This document shows, piece by piece, positions 1-18,143 of a stretch of DNA of 64,000 nt. The DNA is from a candidate division FCPU426 bacterium (lineage in GTDB: Bacteria > Oederibacteriota > Muellerivitia > Muellerivitales > Muellerivitaceae): positions 1,536,001 through 1,600,000 of the forward strand of contig CAWCKJ010000004.1 in NCBI GenBank assembly GCA_963796105.1, in the 5' to 3' direction. Made by a program: the position numbers and the translations under genes. Each line of letters starts with the position of its first letter. Within the stretch, counting starts at the first letter, position 1. The notes under the pieces were generated by a model. It did not search any database. It was not told where the DNA came from and saw only the letters and a list, made by a program, of their open reading frames with translations.

Positions 1-64
1 TTCCAACGGCGAATTGCGCGACTTGTTCGCCCTGAGGCGGGAAGCCCTGGAGGAGGCAACATGA
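1..64 (+). CDS. 3' end of upstream gene, probably SNF2/DEAD-H helicase (partial)
   Basis: Frame from nt 2 reads SNGELRDLFALRREALEEAT*, resembling SNF2 helicase C-termini. Its TGA overlaps the SWIM gene ATG (ATGA). SNF2-SWIM pairing is common. Confidence 0.55.
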   Translation, partial: SNGELRDLFALRREALEEAT

Positions 65-1071
65 GCGAATGGGGCTTGTATTACCCGCGTTCCACGCCGC
101 GAAAGGCCAAGGACGGGATACGCCTTCGGGCGGGGAAGGGAGCCGCCCAAAGCTGGTGGGGGGAGAAATGGGTCGCGGCCCTGGAATCCTTCGGCTGGCA
201 CACCCGCCTGACCCGGGGCCGCAACTACGCCCGGAGCGGCCAGGTGGTCTCCATCGACCTGAAGCCGGGCGAGGTCCTGGCCAGGGTGCAGGGCTCCAAG
301 CCCAAGCCCTATGAGGTCCGCATCGGGCTGAGGCGCACCCCCCGCAAGGATTGGCTGCGGGTGGCCGACATCCTGGCCAAGAAAGCCGTCTTCACCGCGA
401 AACTCCTGGCGGGGGAAATGCCCGAGGGGCTGGATGAGGCGTTCCGGAAAGAGGGCATCCCCTTGTTTCCCAAAAGCAAGAAGGACCTGGAGATGGAATG
501 CTCCTGTCCCGACTGGGAGAATCCCTGCAAGCACATCGCCGCCGCCTACTACATATTGGCCCAGGAACTGGACCGGGACCCCTTTCTGCTGTTGAGGATA
601 CGGGGCTTGGAGAAGGAGGATTTCCTGTCCCAGGTCCGCTCTTCCCGGCGCCAAGGACCCTCCATCCCGGGTGATCCTGACGGACACCGGCCTCCTGGGT
701 TCGCGCCGCCCGCGGGGAAAAAAGCGGAAAAAACGGGCAAAGCCGCCTCCGGGGCAAAATTGTCCGCTGGGGATTTGGGGGATTTTTACCGCCTGGCCCG
801 GGAACTTCCGGCGGACTGGGGGCCCAATCCTGACCGCGTCGCGCGAGCCCCCGCTCCCGGGTCGCTCATCAAGGAAATGGGAGTGCCGCCCTTTTGGAGG
901 GGAGACGTTTCCTTCACGGAAATCCTCCGGAAGGTCATGGAGTCGGTTCGGACTAACGCCGCAGTCCAGGCGGGGATGACTGGACCTCGGGGGAAAGCAA
1001 TGGATCAGGCATTAGCCCGGAAAGCCAGCCGGGGGGATGTTTCACGAAAAAATCCGAATAGCCGATTCTGA
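61..1071 (+). CDS. SWIM zinc finger family protein
   Basis: CSCPDWENPCKH SWIM motif; RLTRGRNYARSGQV N-terminal motif. Confidence 0.9.
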   Translation: MSEWGLYYPRSTPRKAKDGIRLRAGKGAAQSWWGEKWVAALESFGWHTRLTRGRNYARSGQVVSIDLKPGEVLARVQGSKPKPYEVRIGLRRTPRKDWLRVADILAKKAVFTAKLLAGEMPEGLDEAFRKEGIPLFPKSKKDLEMECSCPDWENPCKHIAAAYYILAQELDRDPFLLLRIRGLEKEDFLSQVRSSRRQGPSIPGDPDGHRPPGFAPPAGKKAEKTGKAASGAKLSAGDLGDFYRLARELPADWGPNPDRVARAPAPGSLIKEMGVPPFWRGDVSFTEILRKVMESVRTNAAVQAGMTGPRGKAMDQALARKASRGDVSRKNPNSRF

Positions 1072-1145
1072 GTTCCATGGGCTTGCCAGCGCAGGGTCGT
1101 TGACCTTCCGGATGATGCCGGGGTCCTGCCCGCATTTCAACGGCA

Positions 1146-1318
1146 ATTTTTAATTTTGAATGTTAAATGTTGAATTATTGAGGATTTCCATTTATCGCGC
1201 CAGCCTTCTATAAAACTAAAACGAGGCTGGTACTGTACTAATTTCATTAACTGTCTAATGGGAAATTGGCACGGAAATCTACCAAAATTTAGAATTCAAA
1301 ACTCAAAATTTAACATTG
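1146..1318. repeat. AT-rich heptamer-like inverted arms enclosing a two-hairpin element
   Basis: ttttgaatgttaaatgttgaat on the left versus attcaaaactcaaaatttaacatt on the right. Confidence 0.55.
1199..1272 (+). repeat. Two-hairpin element (GCCAGCCTTC..GAGGCTGGTA-NN-GTAC..GGCAC), copy 1
   Basis: Same arms and 74-bp length as 56832-56905; related in reverse orientation to the 83-bp units before hsdR. Confidence 0.8.
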
Positions 1319-1397
1319 GTTTTCAAGATGCCTTGCCACAGGTGTCAGGAGCCCAACCCGCTCACATTTCCGCCGGTAAACTAGGATAACCTGGTGA

Positions 1398-2012
1398 CAC
1401 CTACCGGCATGGGGGTCTCAGCTACCGGCATGGCGGGAATCACCTACCGGCATGGGGGTCTCAGCTACCGGCATGGCGGGGATCGCCTACCGGCATGAGG
1501 TTCTCAGCTGCCGGCATGGCGGGAATCACCTACCGGCATGAGGTTCTCAGCTACCGGCATGGCGGGGATCGCCTACCGGCATGGGGGTCTCAGCTACCGG
1601 CATGGCGGGAATCACCTACCGGCATGGGGGTCTCAGCTACCGGCATGGTGGGAATCACCTACCGGCATGGGGGTCTCAGCTACCGGCATGGCGGGGATCG
1701 CCTACCGGCATGAGGTTCTCAGCTACCGGCATGGCGGGAATCACCTACCGGCATGAGGTTCTCAGCTACCGGCATGGCGGGGATTGCCTACCGGCATGGG
1801 GGTCTCAGCTACCGGCATGGCGGGAATCACCTACCGGCATGAGGTTCTCAGCTACCGGCATGGCGGGGATCGCCTACCGGCATGAGGTTCTCAACTACCG
1901 GCATGGCGGGGATCGCCTACCGGCATGGGGGTCTCAGCTACCGGCATGGCGGGGATCGCCTACCGGCATGAGGTTCTCAACTACCGGCATGGCAGGGTTC
2001 GCCTACTGGCAT
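1398..2012 (+). repeat. Tandem repeat, 14 x 43 bp (21+22-bp subunits, core CTACCGGCATG) plus partial unit
   Basis: Unit CACCTACCGGCATGGGGGTCTCAGCTACCGGCATGGCGGGAAT repeated 1398-1999 with two biallelic variable positions. Confidence 0.97.
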
Positions 2013-2418
2013 ATTCCTGGGCTCTTATTTGCAGGCGAGTTTTCCACCAATCCGGGGTCAAGTTTTCCGTCGTCCGGTGCCGGGTTTCCGCCATCCGGAG
2101 ACGGGCTTTCCGGCGACATGGCGGTCGGGTGGAGCGGCAGGCATGTCGGAGGCCCTGTCGGAATGGGCGGTCCGACTGCTGGCATTGACGTTGAGTCCGC
2201 CTAATTCTTTATTTCTTGCAACAATTCTTCATTTTTCATTGCCTTGCCGTGAGCTTGTCGAATCCGTCATTTTTCGTTTTTTCCCCGTTTTCTCCTAACT
2301 TTTTTGATGTTCCTCATTTTCCATTCTACATTGTTCATTTTTCATTGTTTTCCGTTGGTGGCATAATGAGGGCCGGTTTTTGGCGTATGACGTAAGATAA
2401 ACTGAAAATTAATAAAAA

Positions 2419-2594
2419 ACTCAACTTTGGAAAATTTTTAGGCCGTTGGTTCTTCCCCCTCTGAAAGAGGGGGATTAAGGGGAAGTTAGAATTGTTTTGG
2501 GTTTTAGCAACAACTAATACCCCCCTATCCCCCCTTTTTCAAAGGGGGGAATAGCTATCTAAAGCATGTCTTTCGAAATTTGCCAAAGTTGAGT
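2419..2594. mobile_element. MITE-like element upstream of hsdM
   Basis: 19-bp terminal IR ACTCAACTTTGG(A/C)AAATTT (18/19), internal CCCCCT..AGGGGG hairpins, A-rich flanks. Confidence 0.75.
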
Positions 2595-2617
2595 AAAAAA
2601 TATAAATAAAGGCCCCC

Positions 2618-4075
2618 ATGTTCGAACAAGCATTTAAAAACATTGATGATGTGCTTTATAAAGAAGATGGTTGCAGCACGGAACTCGATTATGCCGAGCA
2701 ATCCTCTTGGCTCCTTTTCTTAAAATACCTCGATGGGTTAGAGCAGGAACGCGCGACGGCGGCTAAGCTGGACGGCAAGAGATACAGCTATATCCTCGAT
2801 GAACCTTATCGCTGGGCGTCTTGGGCCGCGCCTAAAACTAAGGATGGAAAATTAGACCATAACAATGCCCAAACCGGCGATGATTTGCGCGACTTTGTGG
2901 ATAAAAAACTTTTCCCGTATTTTCGGGCATTTAAGAGTAAGGCGAGTGGGCCCAACACCATCGAATACAAAATCGGGGAAATCTTTAGTGAGATAAAAAA
3001 TAGGATTCAAAGCGGTTACAACATGCGCGAGATCATCGACCACATCGATGAATTGCGGTTCGGCTCACAAAAAGATAAGCACGAACTTTCCCACCTATAC
3101 GAAGCCAAGATAAAGAATATGGGAAACGCCGGGAGGAATGGCGGTCAGTATTACACTCCCCGCCCATTGATCCGGGCCATTATCCAGGTCGTTAAGCCCG
3201 AATTAGGGGAGCGCATTTACGACGGGGCGGTCGGGTCTGCGGGCTTCTTATGCGAGTCTTACAACTACCTCTTGGCCAACAATCCCAAACGATCCACGGC
3301 ACAGGATAAGACCTTGCAAGAGCGTACCTTTTATGGGAAGGAAAAGAAGTCCCTCGCCTATGTCATAGCCATCATGAACATGATTTTACATGGCATTGAA
3401 GCGCCTAATATCATCCATACCAACACGCTTTCCGAGAACCTCGCCGACATCCAGGAAAAAGACCGTTATGAGGTTGTAGTAGCCAATCCGCCCTTTGGTG
3501 GTGGGGAACGAAAGGAAGTTCAGCAAAATTTTCCCATCCGCACCGGGGAAACCGCCTTTTTGTTCCTTCAGCATTTCATCAAAATCCTAAAAGCTGGTGG
3601 ACGCGGCGGCGTAGTTATCAAAAACACTTTTCTATCCAATACCGATAATGCCTCCACCTCTCTGCGTAAACTGCTCTTGGAAAGTTGCAACCTCCATACC
3701 GTGCTCGATTGCCCCGGAGGTACGTTCCTGGGCGCGGGGGTAAAGACCGTTGTACTCTTCTTCGAGAAAGGCGTACCCACCCGGAAGATTTGGTATTACC
3801 AGCTTGATCCTGGCCGCAACATGGGCAAGACCAACTCACTTAACGACGATGACCTTTCCGAATTTGTGAAGTTGCAAAAGAAATTCGCCGATTCACCAAA
3901 GTCGTGGTCGGTGGATGCCAAGGGTATTGATAAGGAAACCTTCGATCTTTCCGTAAAGAACCCCAACGGTGGCGAGGAAGTTAAACACCGTAATCCAAAG
4001 GCGATCATGGACGAAATTGCCAAGCTCGATTCAGAAAGCGCCAAAGTGTTGGGAAACATCAGGAAGTTGGTATGA
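2618..4075 (+). CDS. hsdM: Type I restriction-modification N6-adenine methyltransferase subunit M
   Basis: GQYYTPR, DGAVGSAGF (motif I), ANPPF (motif IV). Confidence 0.95.
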   Translation: MFEQAFKNIDDVLYKEDGCSTELDYAEQSSWLLFLKYLDGLEQERATAAKLDGKRYSYILDEPYRWASWAAPKTKDGKLDHNNAQTGDDLRDFVDKKLFPYFRAFKSKASGPNTIEYKIGEIFSEIKNRIQSGYNMREIIDHIDELRFGSQKDKHELSHLYEAKIKNMGNAGRNGGQYYTPRPLIRAIIQVVKPELGERIYDGAVGSAGFLCESYNYLLANNPKRSTAQDKTLQERTFYGKEKKSLAYVIAIMNMILHGIEAPNIIHTNTLSENLADIQEKDRYEVVVANPPFGGGERKEVQQNFPIRTGETAFLFLQHFIKILKAGGRGGVVIKNTFLSNTDNASTSLRKLLLESCNLHTVLDCPGGTFLGAGVKTVVLFFEKGVPTRKIWYYQLDPGRNMGKTNSLNDDDLSEFVKLQKKFADSPKSWSVDAKGIDKETFDLSVKNPNGGEEVKHRNPKAIMDEIAKLDSESAKVLGNIRKLV

Positions 4076-5247
4076 AAAACGGATGGGAAATAAAAAAACT
4101 TGGCGATGTTAGTGATTTCGAAGGAGGTTCTCAACCGCCGAAATCGAAATTCATATTTGAAAAGAGACCGGGTTATGTGCGTTTTCTTCAAATTCGGGAT
4201 TTTACCAAAGATAAAAATATTACTTATATACCTGAATCGAAAAAGAATCGACTCTGCAAAGAAGATGACATACTGATTGGAAGGTATGGCGCTTCGGTTG
4301 GAAAGATTTTGACAGGTAAGGCGGGTGCTTACAACGTGGCTTTAATGAAGACCAAGCCAAATTTGGCTTTGTTTGAGAAATCTTGGTTTTATAATTATCT
4401 CGTATCAGATGAGTTTCAAGGCCGCTTGGCTAATGTTGCTGACCGTTCAGCTCAAAATGGATTTAGCAAAGAAGATATATTTAATTTTCCTGTGCCCATT
4501 CCTCCGCTTACCGTACAGAAACGGATTGTCGGCATTCTCGACGAAGCGTTTGAGGGTATCACCACTGCCAAAGCCAACGCCGAAAAGAATCTCCAAAACG
4601 CCCGCGCCATCTTTGAAAGTCATCTCCAATCCGTCTTCACCAAGCCCGGCGGGGGGTGGATGGAGAAACGTCTAGTAGAGATTGCGCAAGAATTTGGTCG
4701 TGGTAAGTCTAAGCATCGTCCGCGTAATGACCCCAAACTCTACGGCGGCAAATACCCGTTCGTCCAGACGGGAGATGTCAGCAACGCTGATCACTGGCTA
4801 ACAAACTACTCCCAGACCTATGGCGAAGTTGGTCTAGACCAAAGTCGGTTGTGGCCGAAAGGGACTATCTGCATCGCAATTGTCGGGGCAACTGTTGGCG
4901 AAACTGCAATTCTTAACTTCGAAGCATGTTTTCCAGACAGCGTAATCGGGATCATAGTTAATGAGAAGCTCGCGGATAACGAGTATGTAGAATACTTGCT
5001 TCAATCATACAAAGCACTCTTGAAAGAGAAGGGGCAGGGCACAGCGCGCGATAATATTAATCTTGGGACATTTGAAAACCAAACTTTTCCATTCCCGTCG
5101 TTGAAGTTGCAGAAAGAAATTGTGGTTACGCTTAATGCGCTACACAAAGAAACCCAACATCTTGAATCCATCTACCAGCACAAGCTCGAAGCGCTGGAAG
5201 AATTGAAAAAGTCATTGCTGAACCAAGCCTTCACCGGAGAATTATAG
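4072..5247 (+). CDS. hsdS: Type I restriction-modification specificity subunit S
   Basis: Two TRDs with conserved PIPPLTVQKRIV / PFPSLKLQKEIV and LKKSLLNQAFTGEL; ATGA overlap with hsdM; lower GC. Confidence 0.95.
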   Translation: MKNGWEIKKLGDVSDFEGGSQPPKSKFIFEKRPGYVRFLQIRDFTKDKNITYIPESKKNRLCKEDDILIGRYGASVGKILTGKAGAYNVALMKTKPNLALFEKSWFYNYLVSDEFQGRLANVADRSAQNGFSKEDIFNFPVPIPPLTVQKRIVGILDEAFEGITTAKANAEKNLQNARAIFESHLQSVFTKPGGGWMEKRLVEIAQEFGRGKSKHRPRNDPKLYGGKYPFVQTGDVSNADHWLTNYSQTYGEVGLDQSRLWPKGTICIAIVGATVGETAILNFEACFPDSVIGIIVNEKLADNEYVEYLLQSYKALLKEKGQGTARDNINLGTFENQTFPFPSLKLQKEIVVTLNALHKETQHLESIYQHKLEALEELKKSLLNQAFTGEL

Positions 5248-5250
5248 ATA

Positions 5251-6447
5251 ATGCCCATTCCTGATAACAAACCACCGCAATCCAGCATTGTCCTCTACCG
5301 GACGGAGGACGGACGCACGCGCATCCAATGCCGGTTTGAAAATGAGACAATCTGGCTTACGCAAGTGCAAATCGCAGAACTGTTTCAAACTACCGTGCCT
5401 AATGTCAATCAACATATCAAGGCCATATATGACGAAGGCGAATTAGCCGAAGAGGCAACTATTAAGTCTTACTTAATAGTTCGATCCGAAGGCTCCAGGG
5501 AGGTTTCCCGCGATGTGATGCATTACAGTCTTCCTGCCATCCTCGCTGTCGGCTACCGTGTACGCAGCTCCCGAGGTACGCAGTTCCGCCAGTGGGCGAC
5601 AACGCGCTTGAACGAGTACCTGGTGAAGGGTTTCACCATGGACGATGAACGCCTGAAAAACCCCCCGGGACCAGGCTATACGGACTATTTCGACGAGTTG
5701 CTGGAGCGTATCCGGGACATCCGGGCCAGCGAGCGCCGGGTTTATTTGCGGGTCAGGGAAATACTGGCCTTGGCCGCCGACTACAAGCCCACCGGCGGGG
5801 AAACCAAGGTTTTCTACCAAACCGTCCAAAACAAGCTTCATTTCGCCGCCACAGGCAAAACCGCCTCCGAATTGATCGCGCAAAGGGCTGACGCTAAAAA
5901 GCCCAACATGGGCCTGACCTCCTGGAAAAGCGGCGTGGTGCGCAAGGGCGACGTGACAGTGGCCAAAAACTACCTGCGCGAACCCGAGATCGACGAACTG
6001 AACCGCATCGTCGTCATGTTCCTCGATTTCGCCGAGGACCAGGCCCGCCGGCGCAAACAGATATTCCTGAGGGACTGGAAAACCCGATTGGATGCTTTCC
6101 TGAAATTCAACGAGCGCGCCGTACTGCCCGGGGCCGGGAAGATCAGCCATGAAAAAGCGGAAGCGATGGCGGAAAAAGAATACGAGCTTTTCGCCGAAAG
6201 GCGCCGCGCCCAGCTTGAGGAGGAAGCCGAAACGGATACCCTTCGTCAGCTTGAGGCTGAGGTCAAGGGACGACCCTTCGGGTCGCCACTTGGGCGGGGC
6301 ATGGAACCCCGCCCAAGTACACGGCTAGGCTCTCGGGCATCTGGCTACACTAAAGCTTCGCCAGATAGGCGCCCGGAGCCTCGGCAGCCGGTGAAAAAAC
6401 TGCCCAAGCGGAAGAAACCCAGGAAGGGCAAGCCATGTACCGATTAA
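5251..6447 (+). CDS. Virulence RhuM family protein
   Basis: IWLTQVQIAELF, VGYRVRSSRGTQFRQWAT, LVKGFTMDDERLK, DYFDELLERIRDIRASERR; C-terminal palindromic insertion. Confidence 0.93.
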   Translation: MPIPDNKPPQSSIVLYRTEDGRTRIQCRFENETIWLTQVQIAELFQTTVPNVNQHIKAIYDEGELAEEATIKSYLIVRSEGSREVSRDVMHYSLPAILAVGYRVRSSRGTQFRQWATTRLNEYLVKGFTMDDERLKNPPGPGYTDYFDELLERIRDIRASERRVYLRVREILALAADYKPTGGETKVFYQTVQNKLHFAATGKTASELIAQRADAKKPNMGLTSWKSGVVRKGDVTVAKNYLREPEIDELNRIVVMFLDFAEDQARRRKQIFLRDWKTRLDAFLKFNERAVLPGAGKISHEKAEAMAEKEYELFAERRRAQLEEEAETDTLRQLEAEVKGRPFGSPLGRGMEPRPSTRLGSRASGYTKASPDRRPEPRQPVKKLPKRKKPRKGKPCTD

Positions 6448-6739
6448 TATTTTTATTATTCTAGGGAATCGGCACTATGCTGGGCCGGTTCTCCTATGGA
6501 ACCTGCACCATCAAAACGAGTGCCTCGGCCGGAAGCCTCGGCACAGATAGACTTTTTTAATAATAATTTTAAACAGAAGGTCAGCATGTACCGATTAATA
6601 TTTTCGATAATTCATGGAAATCGGCACTATACCGGCCTCAGTATAAAAACTTCCATTAGAAGGTCAGCATGAACGAAGCCGAGACCAGGGCCGAACACAT
6701 AGACCCGGCGTTGAAAAACGCGGGGTGGGGCGTGGTGGA
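6435..6739 (+). repeat. Direct repeat block: 151-bp unit + 83-bp unit + 71-bp copy of hsdR 5' end
   Basis: 6435-6585 ~ 10935-11085; 6586-6668 ~ 11086-11168 and 11169-11251; 6669-6739 = 11252-11322. Confidence 0.95.
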
Positions 6740-6749
6740 ATGAAGAGCC

Positions 6750-6985
6750 GATAAAGAGGGTTGGAATTGAACCGTCGACAGTTTGTCGACAGTCCAATAG
6801 GGCATACATCTTTGAAGATAAAGAATTGCGCCGGAAAGCAACTGTTCGGAAATTCCGAATAGTTTGAAATGAAGGCGGACGAGAGGCAGTTATCCGGAAA
6901 TCCCGGATAGCTCGTTTTGTGGGTGTGCGCGGTGGCGAATGAGTAGAGCCGGCAACTTGTAAGGATTAATTACAAGTTCGAAAGG
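6750..6985 (+). pseudogene. Four short RhuM/Bro-N gene fragments, each centred on a 25-bp palindrome
   Basis: Fragments read GIEPSTVCRQ, YIFEDKELRRKATVRKFRIV*NEGGRE, AVIRKSRIA and GGE*VEPATCKD*LQVRK; compare rhuM IYDEGELAEEATIKSYLIVRSEGSRE and Bro-N GSESVTNCHQLK. Confidence 0.75.
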
Positions 6986-6992
6986 GGCGTTT

Positions 6993-7829
6993 ATGAAGCA
7001 ACTGTTAGCCAAATTTGAAGGCCATGCCATCCGCCGAGTTTATGACGAGGATACTGAAACCTGGTGGTTCTCCGTGGTAGATATTATGCGGGTGCTGACC
7101 CAACAACCGGATTACCAGACCGCCCGCAAATACTGGAACAAGCTAAAAGAGCGGCTGGTTAAAGAAGGCAGTGAGTCGGTGACAAATTGTCACCAACTGA
7201 AACTTCCCGCCTCCGACGGCAAAAGTTACCTCACCGATGTCGCCACCGCCAAGACGCTATTGCGCCTGGTGCAGTCTGTGCCCAGTCCCAAGGCGGAACC
7301 GATCAAGTTGTGGCTGGCCAAGGTGGGCCACGAGCGCCTGAAAGATATGGCGGACCCAGCTCTTTCCCTGGATCGCGCCCGCGAGTATTGGAAACAGCAG
7401 GGCCGAAGTGAGAAGTGGGTCCAACAGCGCATGATGGGCCAGGAAACCCGGAACAAACTGACGGATTACTGGAAAGGCCACGAGATCAAGGGAGATGACG
7501 AATACGCCCTGTTGACCGACCTGATCCACCGGGAATGGGCGGATGTTTCGGTGAAACAGCACAAACAAATGAAGGGGCTCAAGACCCAAAATCTTCGCGA
7601 CCACATGACGGAGGCGGAATTGATCTTTACGGCTTTGGCCGAGCTTTCCACCCGGCAAATGGCCGAGAGTGTTGAAGCCACCGGGTTGAATGAGAATAAA
7701 ACAGCGGCCAAAAAGGGCGGCCATATCGCCAAAAACGCGCGGCTTGACCTGGAAAGCAAGACCGGGAAAAGGGTCATTACCGGCGATAATTATCTGCCGC
7801 CGCAACGCCGCATCACTGGAAAGAAATAA
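6993..7829 (+). CDS. Bro-N domain / phage antirepressor-like DNA-binding protein
   Basis: IRRVYDEDTETWWFSVVDI, ARKYWNKLKERL, LVQSVPSPKAEPIKLWLA, NLRDHMT. Confidence 0.88.
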   Translation: MKQLLAKFEGHAIRRVYDEDTETWWFSVVDIMRVLTQQPDYQTARKYWNKLKERLVKEGSESVTNCHQLKLPASDGKSYLTDVATAKTLLRLVQSVPSPKAEPIKLWLAKVGHERLKDMADPALSLDRAREYWKQQGRSEKWVQQRMMGQETRNKLTDYWKGHEIKGDDEYALLTDLIHREWADVSVKQHKQMKGLKTQNLRDHMTEAELIFTALAELSTRQMAESVEATGLNENKTAAKKGGHIAKNARLDLESKTGKRVITGDNYLPPQRRITGKK

Positions 7830-7852
7830 TGTACCGATTAATCTTTTTAATA

Positions 7853-9496
7853 CCTGAATTTTGCGCCTAATAAAAAAACCATCTAGGAAACCATTATAGG
7901 ATAAGGGTTGCGAAGCCAACTCATCCTAAAAGAGGGTCCCCCAGATGGTGAAACGTCAAGATACGCCTCAGAAATCAAACCCGCAAGTCCAGAAAAAAGC
8001 CAATCGAAACGGGAGAATCGCGCCCAAGATTACGGCCAATACTCCCGTAGGTATTTGCGAAGACCGCCTAACAGCTTTTGGCGGATTGTTGGCATTGGCG
8101 AAGATGTTCGACCTTCTTGATTTTGAGCGGGAATTCAAAAAACACTATGCCGCACCTAAACGCCTTCCGAATTTGGGCCACTACCGGATGGTAAGCGGCA
8201 TCCTAATGCTTCTTTTCATCGGGTTTCAAAGGCTTGGCCATTTTGCCTACCTGAGGGGTGAGGTCATGCTGTGCGGTTTACTGCGGGTTCCCTTGTTGCC
8301 GGTAGTGACAACTTTTTGGAGATACCTGAGGTCGCTGGGGATCGGGCAGTCGGCATCGTTGCTGAATCTGAGTGGGGCGTTACGGGCCAAGGTTTGGGGA
8401 CAGGTGAAATATGCCCCCAAGAAGGTGGAGATCAACATCGATACCACCACCGCAACGGTCTACGGAAATATCGAGGGAAGCCGAAAAGGATACAACCCCA
8501 AGCACCGGGGCAAGAAGGGACTGAGGCCCATTCTGTGTTTTCTCCAGGAAACCCGGGAATATTTGTGCGGAACCCAAAGACGCGGAACCACCCTTAGTTC
8601 TGAGGAAGTGGCCCGCCAAATTAGACAATTCCGGCGACTCTTGCCGTCCTGTGTCCGGACGATTCTGGTGCGCGGTGACGGTGAAATGATCGGCTGGGAA
8701 AGCGTGAAAGCCTGTGAAAAAGAAGGGTTTTCTTTCATCTTCGGGAACAAGCGGCATGACCCGCCTTTCACGAAAAAGGGTTGGTACCGCCATGGAGAAC
8801 ACGAATACAACGAATGTGTCCATCAACCCATAGGCTGGCAACAACCAGTCCGGTTTGTGGCGATGAGGACGCTGGATGAAAAAGCGCGGGAGAAACAATT
8901 GAGCCTTCCTGAAATGGAAGGATATGTCTACCGAATCTTCGCGACCAACTGTCTGGGAGCACCCCATCGGGTGGTTGAGGAATACGACCTGCGCGCGGAT
9001 GTGGAAAACCTGATTGGTGAGGCGCAACGGGAGGGGTTATTAGCAATTCCCTCTAAGAGTTTCCAAAGCCACCATGCTTTTTTCCAGATCGTGATGCTGG
9101 CTTACAACCTCTGGAGGTGGATGAAACTAATGGTGGGCCATTGTGGAAAAGAAAAGCGACCGGGAAAGAAGCCACAGGAGAAGGAACAGATCACCATGCC
9201 GGACCATACCCTTCGGATCGCACGTTTGAAGATGCTCTTTGTAGCCGCCCGAATCCAGTATCACGGCCATCGGGATGTGGTGAGGTATTCAATCCATGAT
9301 GATAGGACAGCGGGCCTATTGGGTTTCCTCAAATACCTTGATCGAAAACGATTGGAAAGACCCAGGGCGGCCTAGAAGTGGCTTGGTGCAAAAAATTCTT
9401 TGCACATAAGTTCACTTCTGATGAAAATGGCCACTGTCGGGTCCCGATTCAGGCCGATCTGGCCACGGAATCGGTAAACTCGGTGCAAAATTCAGG
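7853..9496 (+). mobile_element. IS1380-family insertion sequence
   Basis: Terminal IRs CCTGAATTTTGCGCC / GGTGCAAAATTCAGG; 5-bp target duplication TAATA at 7848-7852 and 9497-9501. Confidence 0.9.
7945..9375 (+). CDS. IS1380-family DDE transposase
   Basis: LTAFGGL, INIDTT, GYNPKHRGKKG, LVRGDG, YDLRADVENLIGE, LAYNL. Confidence 0.9.
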   Translation: MVKRQDTPQKSNPQVQKKANRNGRIAPKITANTPVGICEDRLTAFGGLLALAKMFDLLDFEREFKKHYAAPKRLPNLGHYRMVSGILMLLFIGFQRLGHFAYLRGEVMLCGLLRVPLLPVVTTFWRYLRSLGIGQSASLLNLSGALRAKVWGQVKYAPKKVEINIDTTTATVYGNIEGSRKGYNPKHRGKKGLRPILCFLQETREYLCGTQRRGTTLSSEEVARQIRQFRRLLPSCVRTILVRGDGEMIGWESVKACEKEGFSFIFGNKRHDPPFTKKGWYRHGEHEYNECVHQPIGWQQPVRFVAMRTLDEKAREKQLSLPEMEGYVYRIFATNCLGAPHRVVEEYDLRADVENLIGEAQREGLLAIPSKSFQSHHAFFQIVMLAYNLWRWMKLMVGHCGKEKRPGKKPQEKEQITMPDHTLRIARLKMLFVAARIQYHGHRDVVRYSIHDDRTAGLLGFLKYLDRKRLERPRAA

Positions 9497-9519
9497 TAAT
9501 AATTAATGGAGAGTCGGCA

Positions 9520-9620
9520 TGTACGAAGCTGAAACCAGAGCCGAACACATAGACCCGGCGTTGAAAAATACCGGGTGGGGCGTTGTGGACGGCAGCCGCG
9601 TACTGCGGGAATACCAAATG
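9520..9620 (+). pseudogene. Degenerate copy of the hsdR 5' end
   Basis: atgtacgaagctgaaaccagagccgaacacatagacccggcgttgaaaaat...gggaataccaaat aligns to 11252-11352. Confidence 0.85.
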
Positions 9621-9723
9621 ACCGCAGGATAGACAAATGCCTAACACCCGGCCTCCTTGACACCCCCCAAAGCCCTGATTTATAATCCTTGAAAATTGAA
9701 AGGCAGGCTTACGGATTTCACGA

Positions 9724-10890
9724 ATGAAAAAATGGATCCCCAGACCCCGGCTTGAACAAGAATTGGCGCGTTCCCTCAAAACGTGGCGCGTCACCTGCCT
9801 ATTGGGCCCCCGCCAATGCGGCAAAACCAGCGCGGCTAAGGCCGTCGCCGGGAAGGCCAAGGCCCATTATTTCGACCTGGAGGACCCCGACGATTTTGAG
9901 CGCCTTCAAAACGCGAAGGCCGTCCTTTCGCCCATCAAGGGCCTGGTGGTGCTGGATGAGGCCCAGCGCATGCCCCAGTTGTTTCCCGTCCTGCGGGTTT
10001 TGGCGGACCGCAAGCCCCTTGCGGCCAGGTTCCTGATCCTGGGCAGCGCCTCGCCTGAACTGGTCAAGGGCGTGACCGAGTCGCTCGCGGGGCGGGTCCA
10101 TTACATCGAAATGGAAGGCTTCCAACTTTCCGAGGTCGGCGTTCCGGGCATGGAAAGGCTTTGGGTCCGGGGCGGCTTTCCCGGTTCCTACCTGGCCGCC
10201 TCCTTGGCCCAGAGCCTTTCCTGGAGGGAAGATTACATCCGGAATTTCCTGGAACGGGACATTCCCCAACTGCATATCCGCATACCCGCCCTGGCCCTCC
10301 GCCGTTTTTGGACCATGGTGGCCCACTACCACGGGCAGATTTGGAACGCCACGGAGATCGCGGGGTCCATGGGAATCAGCCATCCCACGGCCCGCCAGTA
10401 CCTGGACCTTTTGACCGGGGCTTTCGCGATCCGGCAATTGGCCCCATTGGCGGTGAACCTCTCGAAGAGGCTGGTCAAGTCGCCCAAAATTTACATCCGC
10501 GACAGCGGAATTTTTCACGCCCTTCTCGCGGTGCCGGATATGGGAAGGCTCCAGTCCAACCCGAAATACGGCGCCTCCTGGGAAGGTTTCGCCCTGGAGC
10601 ATTTGCTGGCCATGGCGGGGGAAAGGCACGCGGCTTTCTGGTCCACCCATGGGGGGGCCGAGCTGGACCTGGTCATCGAAACGGCAAAAGGCCGGTTCGG
10701 CTTCGAGTTTAAGGCCGCCGGGAGCCCCGGAATGACCCGGTCCTTGCACGAGGCCTTGAAGGATTTGAAACCGAAACGCATTTGGGTGGTTCACCCGGGG
10801 GAGAAAGCCTACCCCCTTCATGAAAAAGTGGATGCTTTGCCGTTAAGCCAATTGGAAACCCTAAGAAAAACGATCGGGGCCCAAACGTAA
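9724..10890 (+). CDS. AAA+ ATPase (AAA_14 + DUF4143 type)
   Basis: GPRQCGKT Walker A, LDEAQ Walker B, SLAGR, RGGFP, KSPKIYIRDSG, ELDLV..FEFK C-terminal nuclease-like motif. Confidence 0.92.
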   Translation: MKKWIPRPRLEQELARSLKTWRVTCLLGPRQCGKTSAAKAVAGKAKAHYFDLEDPDDFERLQNAKAVLSPIKGLVVLDEAQRMPQLFPVLRVLADRKPLAARFLILGSASPELVKGVTESLAGRVHYIEMEGFQLSEVGVPGMERLWVRGGFPGSYLAASLAQSLSWREDYIRNFLERDIPQLHIRIPALALRRFWTMVAHYHGQIWNATEIAGSMGISHPTARQYLDLLTGAFAIRQLAPLAVNLSKRLVKSPKIYIRDSGIFHALLAVPDMGRLQSNPKYGASWEGFALEHLLAMAGERHAAFWSTHGGAELDLVIETAKGRFGFEFKAAGSPGMTRSLHEALKDLKPKRIWVVHPGEKAYPLHEKVDALPLSQLETLRKTIGAQT

Positions 10891-10934
10891 AGGCGCAAGA
10901 ATCCGCCTGGGATAAAACCCAAGAAGGGCAAGCC

Positions 10935-11251
10935 ATGTACCGATTAATATTTTTAACAATTCATGGGAATCGGCACTATGCCGGGCCGGTTCCCCTATGG
11001 AACCGGCACCATCAAAACGAGTGCCTCGGCCGGAAGCCTCGGCACAGATAGACTTCCTTATAAAAATTTCCAATAGAAGGTCAGCATGTACCGATTAATA
11101 TTTTCGATAATTCAAGGAAATCGGCACTATACCGGCCTCAGTATAAAAACTTCCATTAGAAGGTCAGCATGTACCGATTAATATTTTCGATAATTCAAGG
11201 AAATCGGCACTATACCGGCCTCAGTATAAAAACTTCCATTAGAAGGTCAGC
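10935..11251 (+). repeat. 151-bp unit + two tandem 83-bp units immediately upstream of hsdR
   Basis: Each unit begins ATGTACCGATTAATA and ends AGAAGGTCAGC; 11086-11168 and 11169-11251 read identical. Confidence 0.95.
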
Positions 11252-13606
11252 ATGAACGAAGCCGAGACCAGGGCCGAACACATAGACCCGGCGTTGAAAA
11301 ACGCGGGGTGGGGCGTGGTGGACGGCAGCCGCATTTTGCGGGAATACCAAATTACTCCCGGGCGCATCGAGGGGGTGGGGAGACCCAATAAGCCTTCGAT
11401 TGCCGATTATGTGTTGGTCTATCGAAACAACAAGATGGCCGTGGTGGAAGCCAAGGCTTGGGATGAGGAATTAACCGAAGGGGTTGGCCAGGCCAAGGCC
11501 TACGCGGACAAAATGGCTGTTCGGTTCGCCTATTCCACCAACGGCCAGGGCGTTTACCAGATCGACATGCAGACCGGCAAAGAGGGCAAGTTATCTGCTT
11601 TTCCAACGCCCGATCAGCTTTGGGCCGCGACTTTTTCCGAAGCGAACGCCTGGCGGGACCGTTTCTCCGAAGTGCCTTATGAGGACAAAAGCGGCAGTCA
11701 TCCATCGCGCTTTTACCAGGACATCGCCATTGACCGGGTGATGGAGGCTATCGCGGCAAAGAAAAACCGCATCCTGCTTACCCTGGCCACGGGAACGGGA
11801 AAGACCTTTATCGCATTCCAGATCGCCTGGAAACTTTTCCATAGCCGATGGAACCTGAGCGGCCAACCCACCCGCCGTCCCCGAATTCTTTTCCTCGCCG
11901 ACCGCAACAACCTGGCCGACCAGGCCTATAACGCTTTTTCCGCGTTTGCCGAGGACGCATTGGTTCGCATCAAGCCGGACGAGATCCGGAAAAAGGATCG
12001 GGTGCCGACTAACGGGAGCATCTTCTTCACGATTTTCCAAACTTTTATGAGCGGCCCGCCCAAGGAGGGGAAGCCGCCTGTCCCTCAAAGCCCAGCGGGC
12101 GTAGTGGGATCGCCCTATTTCGGCGATTACCCGAAAGATTTCTTCGATTTTATCGTGATTGACGAGTGCCATCGCGGAGGGGCGAACGATGAAAGCAATT
12201 GGCGCGGCATCATGGAATATTTTTCCCCGGCCGTGCAGTTGGGCCTCACGGCTACACCCAAGCGCCAGGAGAACGCGGATACCTACGCCTATTTCGGCGA
12301 ACCGGTTTATATCTATTCCCTGAAGGAAGGCATCAACGATGGGTTCCTCACACCCTTCAAGGTGCGGCAGATATCCACGACATTGGATGAATATGTCTAT
12401 ACCCAGGACGATAACGTTGTTGAGGGTGAAATCGAGGCGGGCAAAAGGTACACCGAGCCCGACTTCAACCGGATCATCGAAATCAAGGAACGCGAAGCCT
12501 ACCGGGTGAAACTGTTCATGGACCAGATCAACCAGAACGAGAAAACCCTGGTCTTTTGCGCCACGCAAGCCCACGCTTTGGCGGTTAGGGACCTGGTCAA
12601 TCAGATGAAGACCAGCACAGATCCCAACTATTGCCAAAGGGTCACGGCCGATGAGGGGGAACTTGGAAACCAGTACTTGCGGGATTTCCAGGACAACGAA
12701 AAGACCATCCCGACCATTTTGACCACTTCCCAGAAGCTCTCCACCGGGGTGGATGCCCGCAACGTGCGCAATATCGTGCTGATGAGGCCGATCAATTCCA
12801 TGATCGAGTTCAAGCAGATCATCGGCCGGGGGACCCGCCTTTATGACGGCAAGTATTACTTCACGGTTTACGACTTCGTGAAGGCCCACCACCACTTTAA
12901 CGACCCGGAATGGGACGGGGAACCACTGGAGCCGGAACCGAAAGAGCCGAAATACAAGGATGATCATCATCACCCGGGGGCGAGTGAAAAAAAGGCTGAA
13001 CATGATAGACCGCAAAGAGTCAAAATAAAACTCGCCGATGGGAAAGCCCGTACCATCCAATCAATGATGGTCACGAGTTTCTGGCATCCCGACGGGACTC
13101 CCATGAGCGCCCAACAATTCATGGAATTGCTATTCGGGAAATTACCAGGATTTTTCAAGAACGAGGCAGAGCTTCGCGCGATTTGGAGCGCGCCGGACAC
13201 GCGCCAGGGATTATTAGAAGGTCTTTCCGAGAAAGGTTTCGGGAAGGATCAACTTACCGAGATGCAAAAGATCATTGACGCGGAAAAGAGCGACTTATTT
13301 GATGTATTGGCTCACGTAGCTTATGCTTTGGCGCCCTTGACCCGCGAGGAACGAGCCCAAAAGGCAAAACCCCAGATCAGCGCCCAATTCAACGCCCACC
13401 AGCAGGCTTTCCTTGATTTCGTGCTCGACCATTATGTAAATGATGGGGTGGAAGAGTTGGAAACCTCGAAGCTGACGCCTCTTCTTCGCCTCAAGTACCA
13501 CAATGCTCTTCAAGACGCCTTGGCTGACCTAGGCCCAGCCGAAACAATCAATAAAATGTTCTTCGGCTTCCAGAAGTACCTTTACCAACCTGTAACATCG
13601 AACTGA
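11252..13606 (+). CDS. hsdR: Type I restriction enzyme subunit R (EcoAI/EcoEI-like)
   Basis: ADYVL..VVEAK nuclease motif, LATGTGKT, IDECHR, GLTATP, QIIGRGTR. Confidence 0.95.
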   Translation: MNEAETRAEHIDPALKNAGWGVVDGSRILREYQITPGRIEGVGRPNKPSIADYVLVYRNNKMAVVEAKAWDEELTEGVGQAKAYADKMAVRFAYSTNGQGVYQIDMQTGKEGKLSAFPTPDQLWAATFSEANAWRDRFSEVPYEDKSGSHPSRFYQDIAIDRVMEAIAAKKNRILLTLATGTGKTFIAFQIAWKLFHSRWNLSGQPTRRPRILFLADRNNLADQAYNAFSAFAEDALVRIKPDEIRKKDRVPTNGSIFFTIFQTFMSGPPKEGKPPVPQSPAGVVGSPYFGDYPKDFFDFIVIDECHRGGANDESNWRGIMEYFSPAVQLGLTATPKRQENADTYAYFGEPVYIYSLKEGINDGFLTPFKVRQISTTLDEYVYTQDDNVVEGEIEAGKRYTEPDFNRIIEIKEREAYRVKLFMDQINQNEKTLVFCATQAHALAVRDLVNQMKTSTDPNYCQRVTADEGELGNQYLRDFQDNEKTIPTILTTSQKLSTGVDARNVRNIVLMRPINSMIEFKQIIGRGTRLYDGKYYFTVYDFVKAHHHFNDPEWDGEPLEPEPKEPKYKDDHHHPGASEKKAEHDRPQRVKIKLADGKARTIQSMMVTSFWHPDGTPMSAQQFMELLFGKLPGFFKNEAELRAIWSAPDTRQGLLEGLSEKGFGKDQLTEMQKIIDAEKSDLFDVLAHVAYALAPLTREERAQKAKPQISAQFNAHQQAFLDFVLDHYVNDGVEELETSKLTPLLRLKYHNALQDALADLGPAETINKMFFGFQKYLYQPVTSN

Positions 13607-13864
13607 AAAAAACCTAGTCCGAACTTGACCCAAATATCCTATGTCCGGAATTGTTCCGATATTTGTGTCTGAAATGGGAACTTATGGCCAATTAAGGCCA
13701 TTATTAAAAAATATGGTGGTATTGTCTTTTGGGTTGGGGGGTTATAATTTTAGTGAAAGAGCGTTAATAATATAGACGTCAAAAAAGACGATGCTATACT
13801 CACCCCCTTAAATTCAAGTTAAGTTCGCGAGTTCATTGCCGTTAGGGAATACAGGAGTTGCCTT

Positions 13865-14341
13865 ATGACCCGCTACCCATTGTTCTTTACCTACAGCTTT
13901 ACGATTCCCGGGAATAATTTTTTGGCCACCATCAGAATATCGAATGGACAGGCTCTGATGGTCCAAGACGAGGATGAGTGGTGGATGTACGGTGTTTGCC
14001 CCGGTTCTATCTCCGACGGCGGCGCTACGCCCCAAGAAGCTTATTTAAAATTCTGCGATACCTTCAAACAGATTCTGGAAGATATCGCTTTTGATAAACA
14101 CGATTTTCAGTCGTTTGAATCGGAAGTTAAAAGCTTTGTCCTGGCCGCGGATGCCAGCGAGCAAAAAGAGTGGTTAAACGCCCGGGAGTCGATACGTTCA
14201 GGACAAATACAGCCGGAGGGCCCATTTAAGGATTTAAAGCGCATTACGACCGATCCTGGCGTAATGGTTACGGTGTCGTGCCTAGACGTTAAAAAATCTT
14301 TTGAAGTTGCGGCCGATAACCAATTAGCTGCCGCGGCTTGA
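13865..14341 (+). CDS. Hypothetical protein, HicB-like antitoxin candidate
   Basis: WWMYGVCPGSISDGGATPQEAYLKF resembles the HicB 'P....G.T.EEA' motif; adjacent to a HicA-like ORF. Confidence 0.5.
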   Translation: MTRYPLFFTYSFTIPGNNFLATIRISNGQALMVQDEDEWWMYGVCPGSISDGGATPQEAYLKFCDTFKQILEDIAFDKHDFQSFESEVKSFVLAADASEQKEWLNARESIRSGQIQPEGPFKDLKRITTDPGVMVTVSCLDVKKSFEVAADNQLAAAA

Positions 14342-14342
14342 G

Positions 14343-14618
14343 TTGACCTCGACTGGTCAATGCCGCCTAAGCATTATCAGGGAAATGCTGGAACATTGCG
14401 TCCCGGGTTCTCATTTGGAGTTAAAAAAACATCATTATTGGGTTTATTGCCCTGGAAAAGAAATTTTCAGGGATTTGCCCAAGGGGGAACATGGTGCGCA
14501 AGACCCGGAAATCCAAATGGGAAAAATCAAGAAAATGGTCCGGTTTCTTGGGATAGAAGAATGCGCATCCGGTTTTATCCCGGGAATAAAGTTCAAGCAA
14601 ACCGCATCGGAAGGTTAA
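14343..14618 (+). CDS. Small protein, HicA-like toxin candidate
   Basis: ~90 aa, KKHHYWV...LPKGEHG..EIQMGKIKKMVRFLGI resembles the HicA pattern. Confidence 0.5.
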   Translation: MTSTGQCRLSIIREMLEHCVPGSHLELKKHHYWVYCPGKEIFRDLPKGEHGAQDPEIQMGKIKKMVRFLGIEECASGFIPGIKFKQTASEG

Positions 14619-14653
14619 CCACATGAGTATTTCCAGGGAAGAAAATTAACACT

Positions 14654-15259
14654 ATGGCTACCCCGTTCCAATACCGGAAAATCACCCAAGCGATAAATTT
14701 TTTCGCTGAAAAAGAAAATAATAAAACCATCAACGTCACAAAAGTCGTAAAACTCCTCTGGGCCGCCGATCGATATCACTTACGTAAATACGGAAGATTA
14801 TTAACTTGCGATAATTACGTCGCGATGGAAAGGGGCCCGGTGGGTTCAACGGTTAAAGACATCGCGGAAGAAAGCAATTTTTTACCCGCCGGCATTGATT
14901 CATATTCGACCAAATACCTGAAGCCTAGGCAATATGTGACCCAGTCATGCCGTGAAGCCGATATGAAAGTGTTTTCACAAACTGATATTGAAGCTTTGGA
15001 ATTTGCCAATACTAATTTTGGCTCCATGTCCCAAAGCGAATTAACGCATTTATCACATCAATATCCGGAATGGAAAAGATTCGAGGGGAAATTAAAGTCC
15101 AAAGCTAGTTTGAAAGAAGATATCGACTTCCTTGATTTCTTTCTCGATCCAAACCCTGAAAACGTCCCGGACGATAAATTCAAAATGGATGACGAGCTTT
15201 TAGCTTTAAGCAAGGATATTTTCTCTGAAGAGACTGAAATTACGGGTTTGCTTTCTTGA
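14654..15259 (+). CDS. Panacea (DUF4065/SocA-like) antitoxin domain protein
   Basis: TKVVKLLWAADRYHLRKYGRLL, YVAMERGPV, ELTHLSHQYPEW. Confidence 0.85.
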   Translation: MATPFQYRKITQAINFFAEKENNKTINVTKVVKLLWAADRYHLRKYGRLLTCDNYVAMERGPVGSTVKDIAEESNFLPAGIDSYSTKYLKPRQYVTQSCREADMKVFSQTDIEALEFANTNFGSMSQSELTHLSHQYPEWKRFEGKLKSKASLKEDIDFLDFFLDPNPENVPDDKFKMDDELLALSKDIFSEETEITGLLS

Positions 15260-15265
15260 AAAATC

Positions 15266-15700
15266 ATGACACTTACACCGGAAGAATTAAATGATTATAT
15301 TTTTCCAGGTTCCGTACTTCGCTTAAGCAATTCCAATACCTTTTCCGTAGAACCCCATTACCATATCATCCTGAATAAAAATCCGCTAACTGATCCGGAC
15401 ATAGTCATGGTTATTGCTTCGACCAACATCGAGGGAAGATTGCGGCATGCGCAAAAAACAGGCAAGGCTCCATCGACATTGTTGATTTTTGAAAATAAAG
15501 ATTGTTCTTTTTTAAGCGAGGAATCTATTTTTGATTGTAATTCGCCCTCCGCCATTTCCTTGAGCGCCCTTTATGACAAATATAATTGTGGGGAATGGAC
15601 AATTAAGAATAAATTTTCAGTGTCACCTGAGATATTGGAGAAATTTAGAAATGCGGTTCGGCTTAGCGCTGCTGCGGCCTATTTTAAGGAATTGCTTTAA
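15266..15700 (+). CDS. Hypothetical protein, PemK/MazF-like toxin candidate
   Basis: PGSVL..PHYHIILN..FLSEESIFDCN pattern; 6 nt downstream of the Panacea gene. Confidence 0.5.
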   Translation: MTLTPEELNDYIFPGSVLRLSNSNTFSVEPHYHIILNKNPLTDPDIVMVIASTNIEGRLRHAQKTGKAPSTLLIFENKDCSFLSEESIFDCNSPSAISLSALYDKYNCGEWTIKNKFSVSPEILEKFRNAVRLSAAAAYFKELL

Positions 15701-15784
15701 GGGCGAAATGCCATGGTTTCGGGCCTCAATTTCATTGGAAAGTATTCCTGAAGCAGTTAAAACCTCTTAAGCACCGGTTGTAAT

Positions 15785-16432
15785 TCAATGCAATAGATCG
15801 GTCAATTGATTGAGGGAATCCACCAGCCAATCGGGATGAAGAGAAACCAGCTTTTCCTTGGGAACAAATCCATGGGCCACCAGTCCCACCCTCAAACCTG
15901 CGGCGCGGGCCGCCTCTAGGTCCACAGACGAATCACCGATCATCACCGCCTCTTCCTGGGTTACTCCCAATTTTTTCAATACTTTTAGCAAGGGGTCCGG
16001 GTTGGGTTTCTTATTCTGGGTAGCGTCCGCCCCCAGTACCGCCGTAAAGAAATGAAACAAGCCCAGTTTTTGAAGGGTTAATTGGGTGAGCTCATGGGGT
16101 TTGTTGGAAACCAGCCCCAGCTTTATCCCCCGGCTCACCAGCGATTCCAGCAATTCCCTGGTGCCCGGAAATACGATGGTTTGATCCACGCAATGCACCT
16201 TGTAATGATCCCCGAGGACCTTCAACCCTTCCGCGAGAATGGCGGGGTCCTCCGTGCCAAGCGCTTTCTTGTTCAAGTGCTCGACGCCCCAGCCGATGTA
16301 GCCCACCAGTGTTTCCAAATCCAGGGGAACCATACCGAAATGCAGGCGCGCGGCGTTCGCGGCGGCGGCGATGTCTTTTTTTGAGTCAATGAGGGTTCCA
16401 TCCAGATCAAACAGTACCGCTTTGAGTTTCAT
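15785..16432 (-). CDS. gph: HAD-family phosphoglycolate phosphatase-like hydrolase
   Basis: FDLDGTLIDS, VSNK, KKPNP, MIGDSSVD. Confidence 0.85.
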   Translation of the reverse strand: MKLKAVLFDLDGTLIDSKKDIAAAANAARLHFGMVPLDLETLVGYIGWGVEHLNKKALGTEDPAILAEGLKVLGDHYKVHCVDQTIVFPGTRELLESLVSRGIKLGLVSNKPHELTQLTLQKLGLFHFFTAVLGADATQNKKPNPDPLLKVLKKLGVTQEEAVMIGDSSVDLEAARAAGLRVGLVAHGFVPKEKLVSLHPDWLVDSLNQLTDLLH

Positions 16433-16500
16433 TTATAGGCCCTTTCATTTTTGAAATACTTTATAGACCGATGATTTATAACAACAAAAATATTAAATTT

Positions 16501-16536
16501 CACCACAGGTTCTTTCAGAACCACAAAGGCACAGTA
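16501..16536 (+). repeat. Dispersed intergenic repeat (CACCACAGG..GGCACAG family)
   Basis: Near-identical to 19416-19451; related inverted arms at 19530-19558 and 53707-53742. Confidence 0.7.
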
Positions 16537-16887
16537 GGGAAAAGCCTAATGTTTTAAAGACTTAAACCCAACGAAGACTTACTTCGGTGCGAAACCCCAC
16601 TGTTTAAAAAAGCAATTTAGTGAGGACCTCATAAATAATTATATGGTGATTCCATGCATGGCAACCTAAGTTCTTGGATTAAATGTTACAACTTCATCTC
16701 ACCACAGGGACTCAGGGTCTCAGCTAAAAACTACTAACTTTCACCACGGCTGTGCTCTTGGCGCGATCTAAATATCACAAAGTGGGGTATTGTCAAAGGC
16801 CGGGGTCGTTGTAGTTTTCGAGGGGCCTGCTAAAATAACGGCTCTGTTCGAGTTGTGTTGAATAACGCGTTAAACAGGAAAATCGCC

Positions 16888-18087: not shown

Positions 18088-18143
18088 AAGTTCAAATCGT
18101 AAATTCATTCCGGGTTAACTGTTTCGGTGCAACTTCAGTTAGT

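Follow-up and report, generated by a model that had tools for sequence, protein, structure and literature searches.

Our analysis of a 64,000-nucleotide stretch from the genome of a candidate division FCPU426 bacterium (contig CAWCKJ010000004.1; hereafter the window) centers on a rhuM gene and a Bro-N gene that lie in the cargo of a type I restriction-modification operon. Each of these genes carries a 25-bp palindrome within its coding sequence, and four silent copies of such palindromes (hereafter orphan sites) are stacked between them. The findings suggest that the palindrome is a self-encoded DNA immunity site, similar to the aba element of BstA, and that orphan sites are kept as passwords protecting the DNA that carries them; we give this reading a probability of roughly 0.55. 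That RhuM and Bro-N proteins bind the palindrome in their own gene is very probable. Once such self-binding is granted, an immunity role of the site becomes reasonably probable. The odds are about even for a further generalization, namely a widespread class of defense in which one gene encodes both the reading helix and the exact palindrome it reads, the site acting as antidote, and in which bacteria and phages build keychains of foreign passwords.

All six palindromes lie where a reading of the DNA made without database searches (the sequence-only reading) had placed them, and our recount on the window gave the same symmetry scores. They are real and far above chance. Three sites in the 64-kb window reach 11/12 paired positions or more, and every one of them belongs to the set of six. 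The 250-bp intergenic stretch holds four sites at 9/12 or better, whereas 400 dinucleotide shuffles of it averaged 0.09 and never exceeded 2, and between 5440 and 7215 three sites reach 11/12, as against 0.005 in such shuffles; the observed cluster was reached in 0/400 of them. The silent array begins directly after a duplicate of the hsdR leader that ends at 6739. Its sites have different cores and are spaced 70, 48 and 66 nt apart, and no tandem array was called at the stack. The three RhuM-type copies share one reading frame, with three stops, one of them inside a palindrome. A RhuM-type label considered for the site at 6770 was dropped because an intact Bro-N allele (L307) has the same core, and the frame that the sequence-only reading had given to this piece is therefore right. 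A 26-nt identical stretch at this first orphan occurs in a genome of the same family as the host (G016), and the array as a whole was not found again when the DNA of 40 relatives was searched.

The in-gene palindrome is a trait of both families. At the homologous codon position, 83/83 RhuM segments score at least 9/12 (mean 11.08 vs 3.14 along the gene) and 84/85 Bro-N segments at least 10/12; in wider sets, 153/156 and 111/116 segments, respectively, reach 9/12 or more. The palindrome occupies codons 69-77 in RhuM and 61-69 in Bro-N, and its core varies widely among genes while both arms vary in step. In 264 genes, unpaired bases number 1-4 at positions 6-10 and 87 and 67 at positions 11 and 12. 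Because the two innermost positions are often unpaired, the unit is better described as two 10-bp half-sites with a 5-bp spacer (10-5-10) than by the 12-1-12 geometry first assigned to it, although the six symmetric 25-bp sites themselves stand. Among in-gene mismatches, G.T (19) and A.C (18) are equally frequent. Of the DNA- or RNA-level constraint that had been proposed, this favors one on double-stranded DNA over one on an RNA stem.

The description of RhuM and Bro-N as two unrelated families is doubtful, since their N-terminal profiles can be aligned over the whole length, albeit weakly (hhalign probability 14-17%, P 0.0005-0.0014, 85-104 colinear columns in which the palindrome codons coincide; 0.1% when a single Bro-N sequence was used). 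The RhuM N-terminus carries, according to the structural model, a winged helix-turn-helix, that is, a two-helix motif (residues 38-44 and 49-61) followed by a beta-hairpin wing (strands 71-80 and 83-92), the predicted local distance difference test (pLDDT) score of this block being 74-90. In this model, the palindrome encodes the first strand of the hairpin at 71-92. The closest DNA-bound structure was the DNA-binding domain of pSK1 Par (8csh, VIA), at a middling score (Z 6.4, root-mean-square deviation 1.4 over 51 residues), and Foldseek returned no match at E 0.001. The Bro-N model, built from a single sequence, had a pLDDT of 42 and an unusable fold. Elsewhere in the host genome, outside the window (C3:536712-536736 and C3:536951-536975), a perfect in-frame palindrome of like geometry occurs in a third gene type, which is ORF6N-like by a motif, and another palindrome, unlike the first, lies 239 nt upstream of it. 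Three RhuM-domain genes with shorter matches (L512, L513 and L514) have no palindrome at the registered position, possibly a natural loss or an offset.

The evidence for self-binding comes from a correspondence between the palindrome and the predicted recognition helix, derived on 147 RhuM genes (9 of the 156 segments were left out before tree building for low coverage or a score below 9/12). Half-site bases 5-6 follow residue 53, AT going with Asn53 (60/63), GT with Ser53 (33/34) and TG with Thr53 (32/34). Bases 8-10 follow residues 51 and 54, as seen for CGG with Glu54 (45/47), GCA with Arg/Lys54 (12/12) and CGA with His/Tyr54 (7/7). The two blocks of bases recombine freely among genes, and each residue still tracks its own bases. 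Furthermore, different palindromes can encode one and the same peptide, and the helix then tracks the DNA, which argues against residue-residue contact. In this synonymous test, Arg/Lys50 goes with C at base 7 and Pro/Asn50 with T in 39/39 genes, and likewise in 48/48 of a larger set, for which no other column of the cassette exceeded 0.85. The pairings found, namely Arg/Lys with G, Asn with A, Glu with C and Thr with T, agree with general protein-DNA preferences.

The rules were fixed in writing before they were applied to 80 new RhuM segments from three other taxonomic samples (L468, L490 and L517 were left out). Both arms were predicted rightly in 62/77 genes for bases 8-10 and in 47/72 for bases 5-6 (at least one arm in 61/72), and base 7 in 20/22. 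The core of the window's own rhuM, ATTAAG, is the one predicted from its own helix. Bro-N has a helix-core pairing of its own, parallel to that of RhuM, in a less diverse set. That the bases of the palindrome track the residues of their own helix, even where they are synonymous, and that the rule held on new genes make binding of the protein to its own gene the most likely explanation.

Helix and palindrome are, to judge from the drop in pairwise identity, exchanged together as a cassette of about 140 bp. We found 26 gene pairs that differ in core although their bodies are 84-94% identical; 13 of them are disjoint. In these 13, identity is 0.50-0.67 over nt 138-276 of rhuM, compared with 0.77-0.87 before this region, 0.71 in the 24-nt downstream edge of the cassette and 0.88-0.91 from nt 300. 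The swap boundaries thus fall in conserved codons outside the palindrome, about 70 nt before it and 45 nt after it. On the 147-gene tree, specificity changed 46-50 times, near the 58-62 changes obtained with shuffled labels.

The silent copies are best read as clipped remains of earlier rhuM and Bro-N alleles. Seven of the eight half-site cores of the four copies are those of intact known alleles. The copies extend at most 34 nt to the left and 22 nt to the right of the palindrome and thus stop short of the helix codons, which are found 44-68 nt before it. In 52 curated orphans, family-like sequence continues past the palindrome for a median of 4.5 and 5 nt on the two sides. A retention test free of palindrome bias, in which equal 31-nt profiles along each gene were scanned on non-gene locus DNA (the own-genome loci L161, L171 and L281 left out), found 16 non-coding rhuM remnants at the palindrome window, as against a median of 1 and a maximum of 6 in 27 other windows, and 12 Bro-N remnants, as against a median of 0 and a maximum of 4 in 22 other windows. 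The earlier proposal of clipped gene pieces centered on the palindrome is upheld.

Arrays of this kind, which the sequence-only reading had suggested looking for, do recur at other loci. At the locus L100, six sites separate hsdS from a Bro-N gene, every core unlike that of the gene, L298 has four sites, and L305 and L167 have three or more; the spacing in stacks is irregular (21-95 nt). For 33 orphans, an intact gene follows downstream at no more than 720 nt; 28 of them mismatch the core of that gene, three match it in both arms and two in one arm. Four loci (L086 3946, L092 3946, L093 3564 and L094 3126) share homologous non-coding flanks around different symmetric Bro-N palindromes, where the orphan seems, by this comparison, to have been replaced or to be co-evolving outside coding sequence. 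In L066 (764), an orphan RhuM palindrome lies in frame within the C-terminal tail of the upstream gene. A broken fragment of the middle part of the Bro-N gene was also seen in the host, on the same contig as the window (C4:781534-781644).

The sites are also found in viral DNA. The exact arms of the window's rhuM site occur in 19 viral contigs, compared with 0 for an arm-swapped control, those of the Bro-N type in at least 120, compared with 1 and 5 for two controls, and those of orphan site 4 in at least 120. After near-identical contexts had been merged, 17/19, 41/45 and 63/69 distinct contexts, in total 121/133, lay outside rhuM and Bro-N genes; a short-query BLAST of phages and plasmids, whose matches were mostly weak or in-gene, does not enter these counts. 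These free viral sites require the 5-nt spacer. Within 300 nt, 19 of the 121 free contexts have a further site, mostly of another core and in several cases abutting at 26 nt, compared with a background rate of 0.003 per 600 bp for the host genome and with none in 435 shuffles. Thirty of the 121 fall within open frames at least 150 codons long, one of them (L324) within what is presumably a helicase motif. An annotated Streptococcus prophage has one site between head genes. The rhuM gene itself is present in temperate phages and streptococcal satellite phages, and a viral scan with the Bro-N protein gave one locus.

We therefore consider how these observations might fit together. A RhuM or Bro-N dimer would bind the 10-5-10 palindrome of its own gene, and binding would disarm the protein or spare the DNA bearing the site. 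Tandem passenger genes at the hsdS-hsdR junction may collapse through deletions that spare the site, orphans would likely persist since the site protects the DNA carrying it, and phages may gather sites as counter-defense. Protection of carrier DNA is the simplest account of the fast swaps of specificity, the over-retained orphans and the viral stacks. A defense function is in line with a published experiment, in which one PDC-S05 (RhuM-family) gene conferred protection from T7, T5 and T4 on E. coli B, the plating of T7 and T5 being reduced about 1,000-fold (10.1101/2024.09.26.614923).

Several observations weigh against this account. The PDC-S05 gene of that experiment may not have retained its palindrome when it was synthesized (10.1101/2024.09.26.614923). 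The code was wrong in both arms for 11/72 (bases 5-6) and 12/77 (bases 8-10) of the new genes, and in 6/80 the registered place held no palindrome that reached 8/10. The synonymous test amounts to five pairs on the body tree (p 0.0625), and the poorly resolved cassette tree gave two well-supported independent pairs for the covariation. Since helix and palindrome travel on one cassette, part of their covariation is shared descent. The curated orphans were located by way of the palindrome itself, which biases the comparison of their flanks, and the viral contigs, taken from IMG/VR, can contain host DNA. Orphans are uncommon, with one upstream orphan in 87 new loci. They are also more decayed than in-gene sites (unpaired arm positions 45/480 in host orphans vs 97/2640 in genes, four long remnants of the 52 orphans being left out) and contain a stop codon in 8/48 cases; lasting selection on host orphans is thus weak. 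Finally, no reader protein for the four orphans was found in the host genome, which is 96.8% complete, because it holds a single RhuM and a single Bro-N domain.

The main rival explanation is an intragenic roadblock operator, the protein binding its own gene solely to limit expression. Orphans would then be passively surviving footprints, captured by hosts and phages, as a bound dimer shields about 35 bp or blocks deletions. The covariation of helix and palindrome fits this idea equally, the size of an orphan (25 bp plus the short median flanks) is close to a dimer footprint, and the decay of host orphans and the irregular spacing of stacks (48-70 nt here) agree with it. However, it leaves unexplained the frequent specificity swaps, the viral contigs in which different cores abut at 26 nt and the sites within long open frames of other genes. 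In other words, it accounts for the decay of host orphans but not for the abutting viral stacks, and we consider it unlikely, if the strongest of the alternatives.

Palindromes that serve as recombination signals for cassette exchange or gene insertion, with orphans as junction scars, would suit the frequency of cassette swapping, the homologous non-coding positions with different, fully symmetric cores (L086, L092, L093 and L094; L016 and L077) and the clustering of orphans 220-340 nt upstream of the site of the next gene. Against this stand the swap boundaries, which lie tens of bases away in conserved flanks, and the orphans themselves, whose arms are matched and whose flanks, where legible, both come from one gene type. 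Moreover, the 13 open reading frames scanned contain no recombinase, just a DDE transposase, and the target of a recombinase would not vary with the residues of the helix. Site-specific recombination at the palindrome, one of the mechanisms that had been proposed, is thus improbable.

Still somewhat less probable is an array of operators by which resident or other cell proteins regulate the Bro-N gene. Its position invites this idea, as 14 nt separate the end of the last orphan from the start of Bro-N, and so do the terminator-like form of one orphan and the few upstream orphans (3/33 in both arms, 2/33 in one) that match the downstream gene. But 28/33 mismatch it, the four here all differ from both resident cores, and the host has just one domain of each kind to read them. 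The earlier suggestion of captured operators of RhuM- or Bro-N-type proteins comes closest of the proposed mechanisms, except that they would be sites of absent alleles and not of resident proteins.

We see very little likelihood that the array is a silent library of donors from which gene conversion replaces the palindrome segment. The orphan cores are indeed alleles of intact genes elsewhere, 29/33 upstream orphans are oriented as the downstream gene, and three here share one frame. However, the swapped unit is the whole cassette, and donors without helix codons do not cover the variable region of rhuM (nt 138-276). A swap of the palindrome alone would break the code, which is broken in only 6/125 genes, none at loci with curated orphans, and the three RhuM-type orphans hold three stops. 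Three sequencing runs with a weak content of this DNA, and no RNA run, were listed; they gave short pieces that barely cover the source population. Because its pieces lack helix codons and match neither resident protein, the array is most probably neither a donor library nor a set of operators of resident genes. Least probable of all is an mRNA hairpin under selection, for although every site can form a stem-loop, G.T is not in excess over A.C, no Rfam match was found in positions 1-20000 of the window, the bases are linked specifically to helix residues, and free viral sites need the 5-nt spacer.

Immunity by a self-encoded site has a precedent in BstA, whose N-terminal domain is KilA-N-like and whose own locus contains a cognate DNA element that suppresses it (Owen et al. 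2021, PMC8585504). This element, aba, overlaps the BstA coding sequence, its variants are mutually specific, and a phage that carries it is protected (PMC8585504). As far as that report goes, the likeness consists in a helix-turn-helix defense protein with a cognate element in its own coding sequence, a pairing that here rests on covariation. In contrast to the 25-bp inverted repeat at internal codons described here, aba is 63 bp long, has terminal direct repeats and overlaps the start of the gene. The word palindrome is absent from the main text of that report, and aba is not known to have a recognition code, a cassette swap or orphan arrays. No BstA row was among the PADLOC matches listed (PDC-S05 and PDC-S23 for RhuM, best 25 of 39; PDC-S13 and PDC-S04 for Bro-N). 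By sequence, then, the present system would work like BstA-aba, but its element is not of the aba type. Both proteins are members of candidate families, PDC-S05 and PDC-S13, which are listed as single-protein candidates and for which no DNA element or mechanism is known to have been described.

Palindromic protein-binding sites within coding sequence, such as lac O2 and the PurR box in purB, are read by a regulator encoded elsewhere and are not known to be hypervariable, whereas here the product of the same gene would read a site that varies with its helix. Contact-dependent and type VI toxins have orphan immunity arrays, in which an immunity protein is kept after loss of the toxin gene; here, the retained unit is a 25-bp DNA site and not a protein. 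The target-recognition domains of hsdS change specificity by recombination between conserved flanks, but the swapped domain does not bring its own target, while the present cassette carries reader and site together. Arrays of short variable sequences are also known from CRISPR and from silent-cassette antigenic variation. The resemblance to CRISPR lies in short variable sequences beside a defense locus, but the stack has no constant repeat and no regular spacing, and there are no cas genes among the open reading frames scanned. Unlike silent cassettes, the pieces cannot supply a working specificity. A literature search that covered neither subscription journals nor bioRxiv supplements found no paper describing these palindromes. 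The present work contributes a stack of four sites from two families, the limits of the cassette, tests on synonymous bases and on out-of-sample genes, a test of retention and the observation of abutting viral stacks.

The coordinates of all features are collected in Table 1. The operon has the order hsdM-hsdS-cargo-hsdR in a Pfam scan of the window, and the cargo comprises rhuM, the hsdR-leader duplicate, the four silent palindromes, the Bro-N gene, a DDE transposase, a second hsdR stub and an AAA gene. In contigs of other organisms, the hsdS end (5237) is fused straight to the hsdR start, and the hsdS-hsdR junction is thus an insertion zone. RhuM matches PF13310 at 373.7 bits (cut-off 33.7) and Bro-N matches PF02498 at 35.9 bits (cut-off 25.6); Bro-N relatives are named DNA-damage-inducible protein D in the sources. 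A search of NCBIfam returned no family, and PHROGs had none for RhuM. RhuM was matched in 37/99 genomes of the host phylum, and RhuM genes are described as neighbors of type I restriction-modification loci (PMC9881135).

Table 1. Features of the palindrome system and of its locus (positions in the window)
Feature	Position	Strand	Basis or remark
rhuM in-gene palindrome, 10-5-10, core ATTAAG	5457..5481	.	Symmetry 11/12
Orphan site 1, Bro-N-type, core GTCGAC in both arms	6770..6794	.	9/12; same core in intact Bro-N allele L307
Orphan site 2, RhuM-type, cores GTTCGG/ATTCGG	6806..6886, palindrome 6840-6864	+	11/12; rhuM-like flanks of 34 and 22 nt
Orphan site 3, RhuM-type, core ATCCGG	6888..6912	.	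10/12
Orphan site 4, RhuM-type, core TGTAAG	6934..6985, palindrome 6954-6978	+	10/12; one damaged base creates a stop codon
Bro-N in-gene palindrome, core GGTGAC	7174..7198	.	11/12
Bro-N helix codons covarying with the Bro-N palindrome	7122..7157	+	Helix-core comparison
Putative swappable rhuM specificity cassette: predicted recognition helix (codons 47-57), palindrome, wing	5389..5527	+	Pairwise identity drop
rhuM gene, PADLOC candidate PDC-S05, predicted N-terminal winged helix-turn-helix	5251..6447	+	Pfam PF13310, PADLOC E 1e-161, model
Bro-N gene, PADLOC candidate PDC-S13	6993..7829	+	Pfam PF02498, PADLOC E 2e-116
Truncated duplicate of hsdR upstream region and first codons	6415..6739	+	Alignment to 10903-11345
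hsdM methylase, type I restriction-modification (context)	2618..4075	+	Pfam N6_Mtase, HsdM_N
hsdS	4072..5247	+	Pfam Methylase_S; cargo zone starts directly 3′
hsdR, EcoEI-type C-terminus, closes the cargo zone	11252..13606	+	Pfam ResIII, EcoEI_R_C

Some further features of the locus are recorded here. A tandem array of a 43-bp unit (1400-2012; 14.3 copies, 92% matches) lies upstream of hsdM. The hsdR leader contains an 83-bp tandem repeat of 2.4 copies (11059-11254), which is present in the truncated duplicate too (6560-6674), and one of its short motifs is found again where rhuM (6434) and Bro-N (7828) end. Located 3′ of the transposase gene is a second stub of the 5′ end of hsdR, which is more diverged (9520-9632), followed by an AAA_14/DUF4143 gene (9724-10890) that matches the PADLOC candidate PDC-S01. 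The four small genes 3′ of hsdR (13865-15700) include one with a SocA/Panacea antitoxin domain and three without family matches.

The present study thus offers a testable mechanism for two very common gene families of unknown function. It points to counter-defense by DNA sites and not by proteins, which would be invisible to protein-based searches. Hundreds of natural helix-site pairs can be read from single genes, a rare data set for rules of protein-DNA recognition. If autoregulation alone holds, the palindrome would still be an unusual self-encoded operator. If, however, the keychain reading is true, natural alleles would spell out a modular helix-to-base code, and the orphan arrays would constitute a DNA-level memory of immunity that needs neither RNA nor an integrase.

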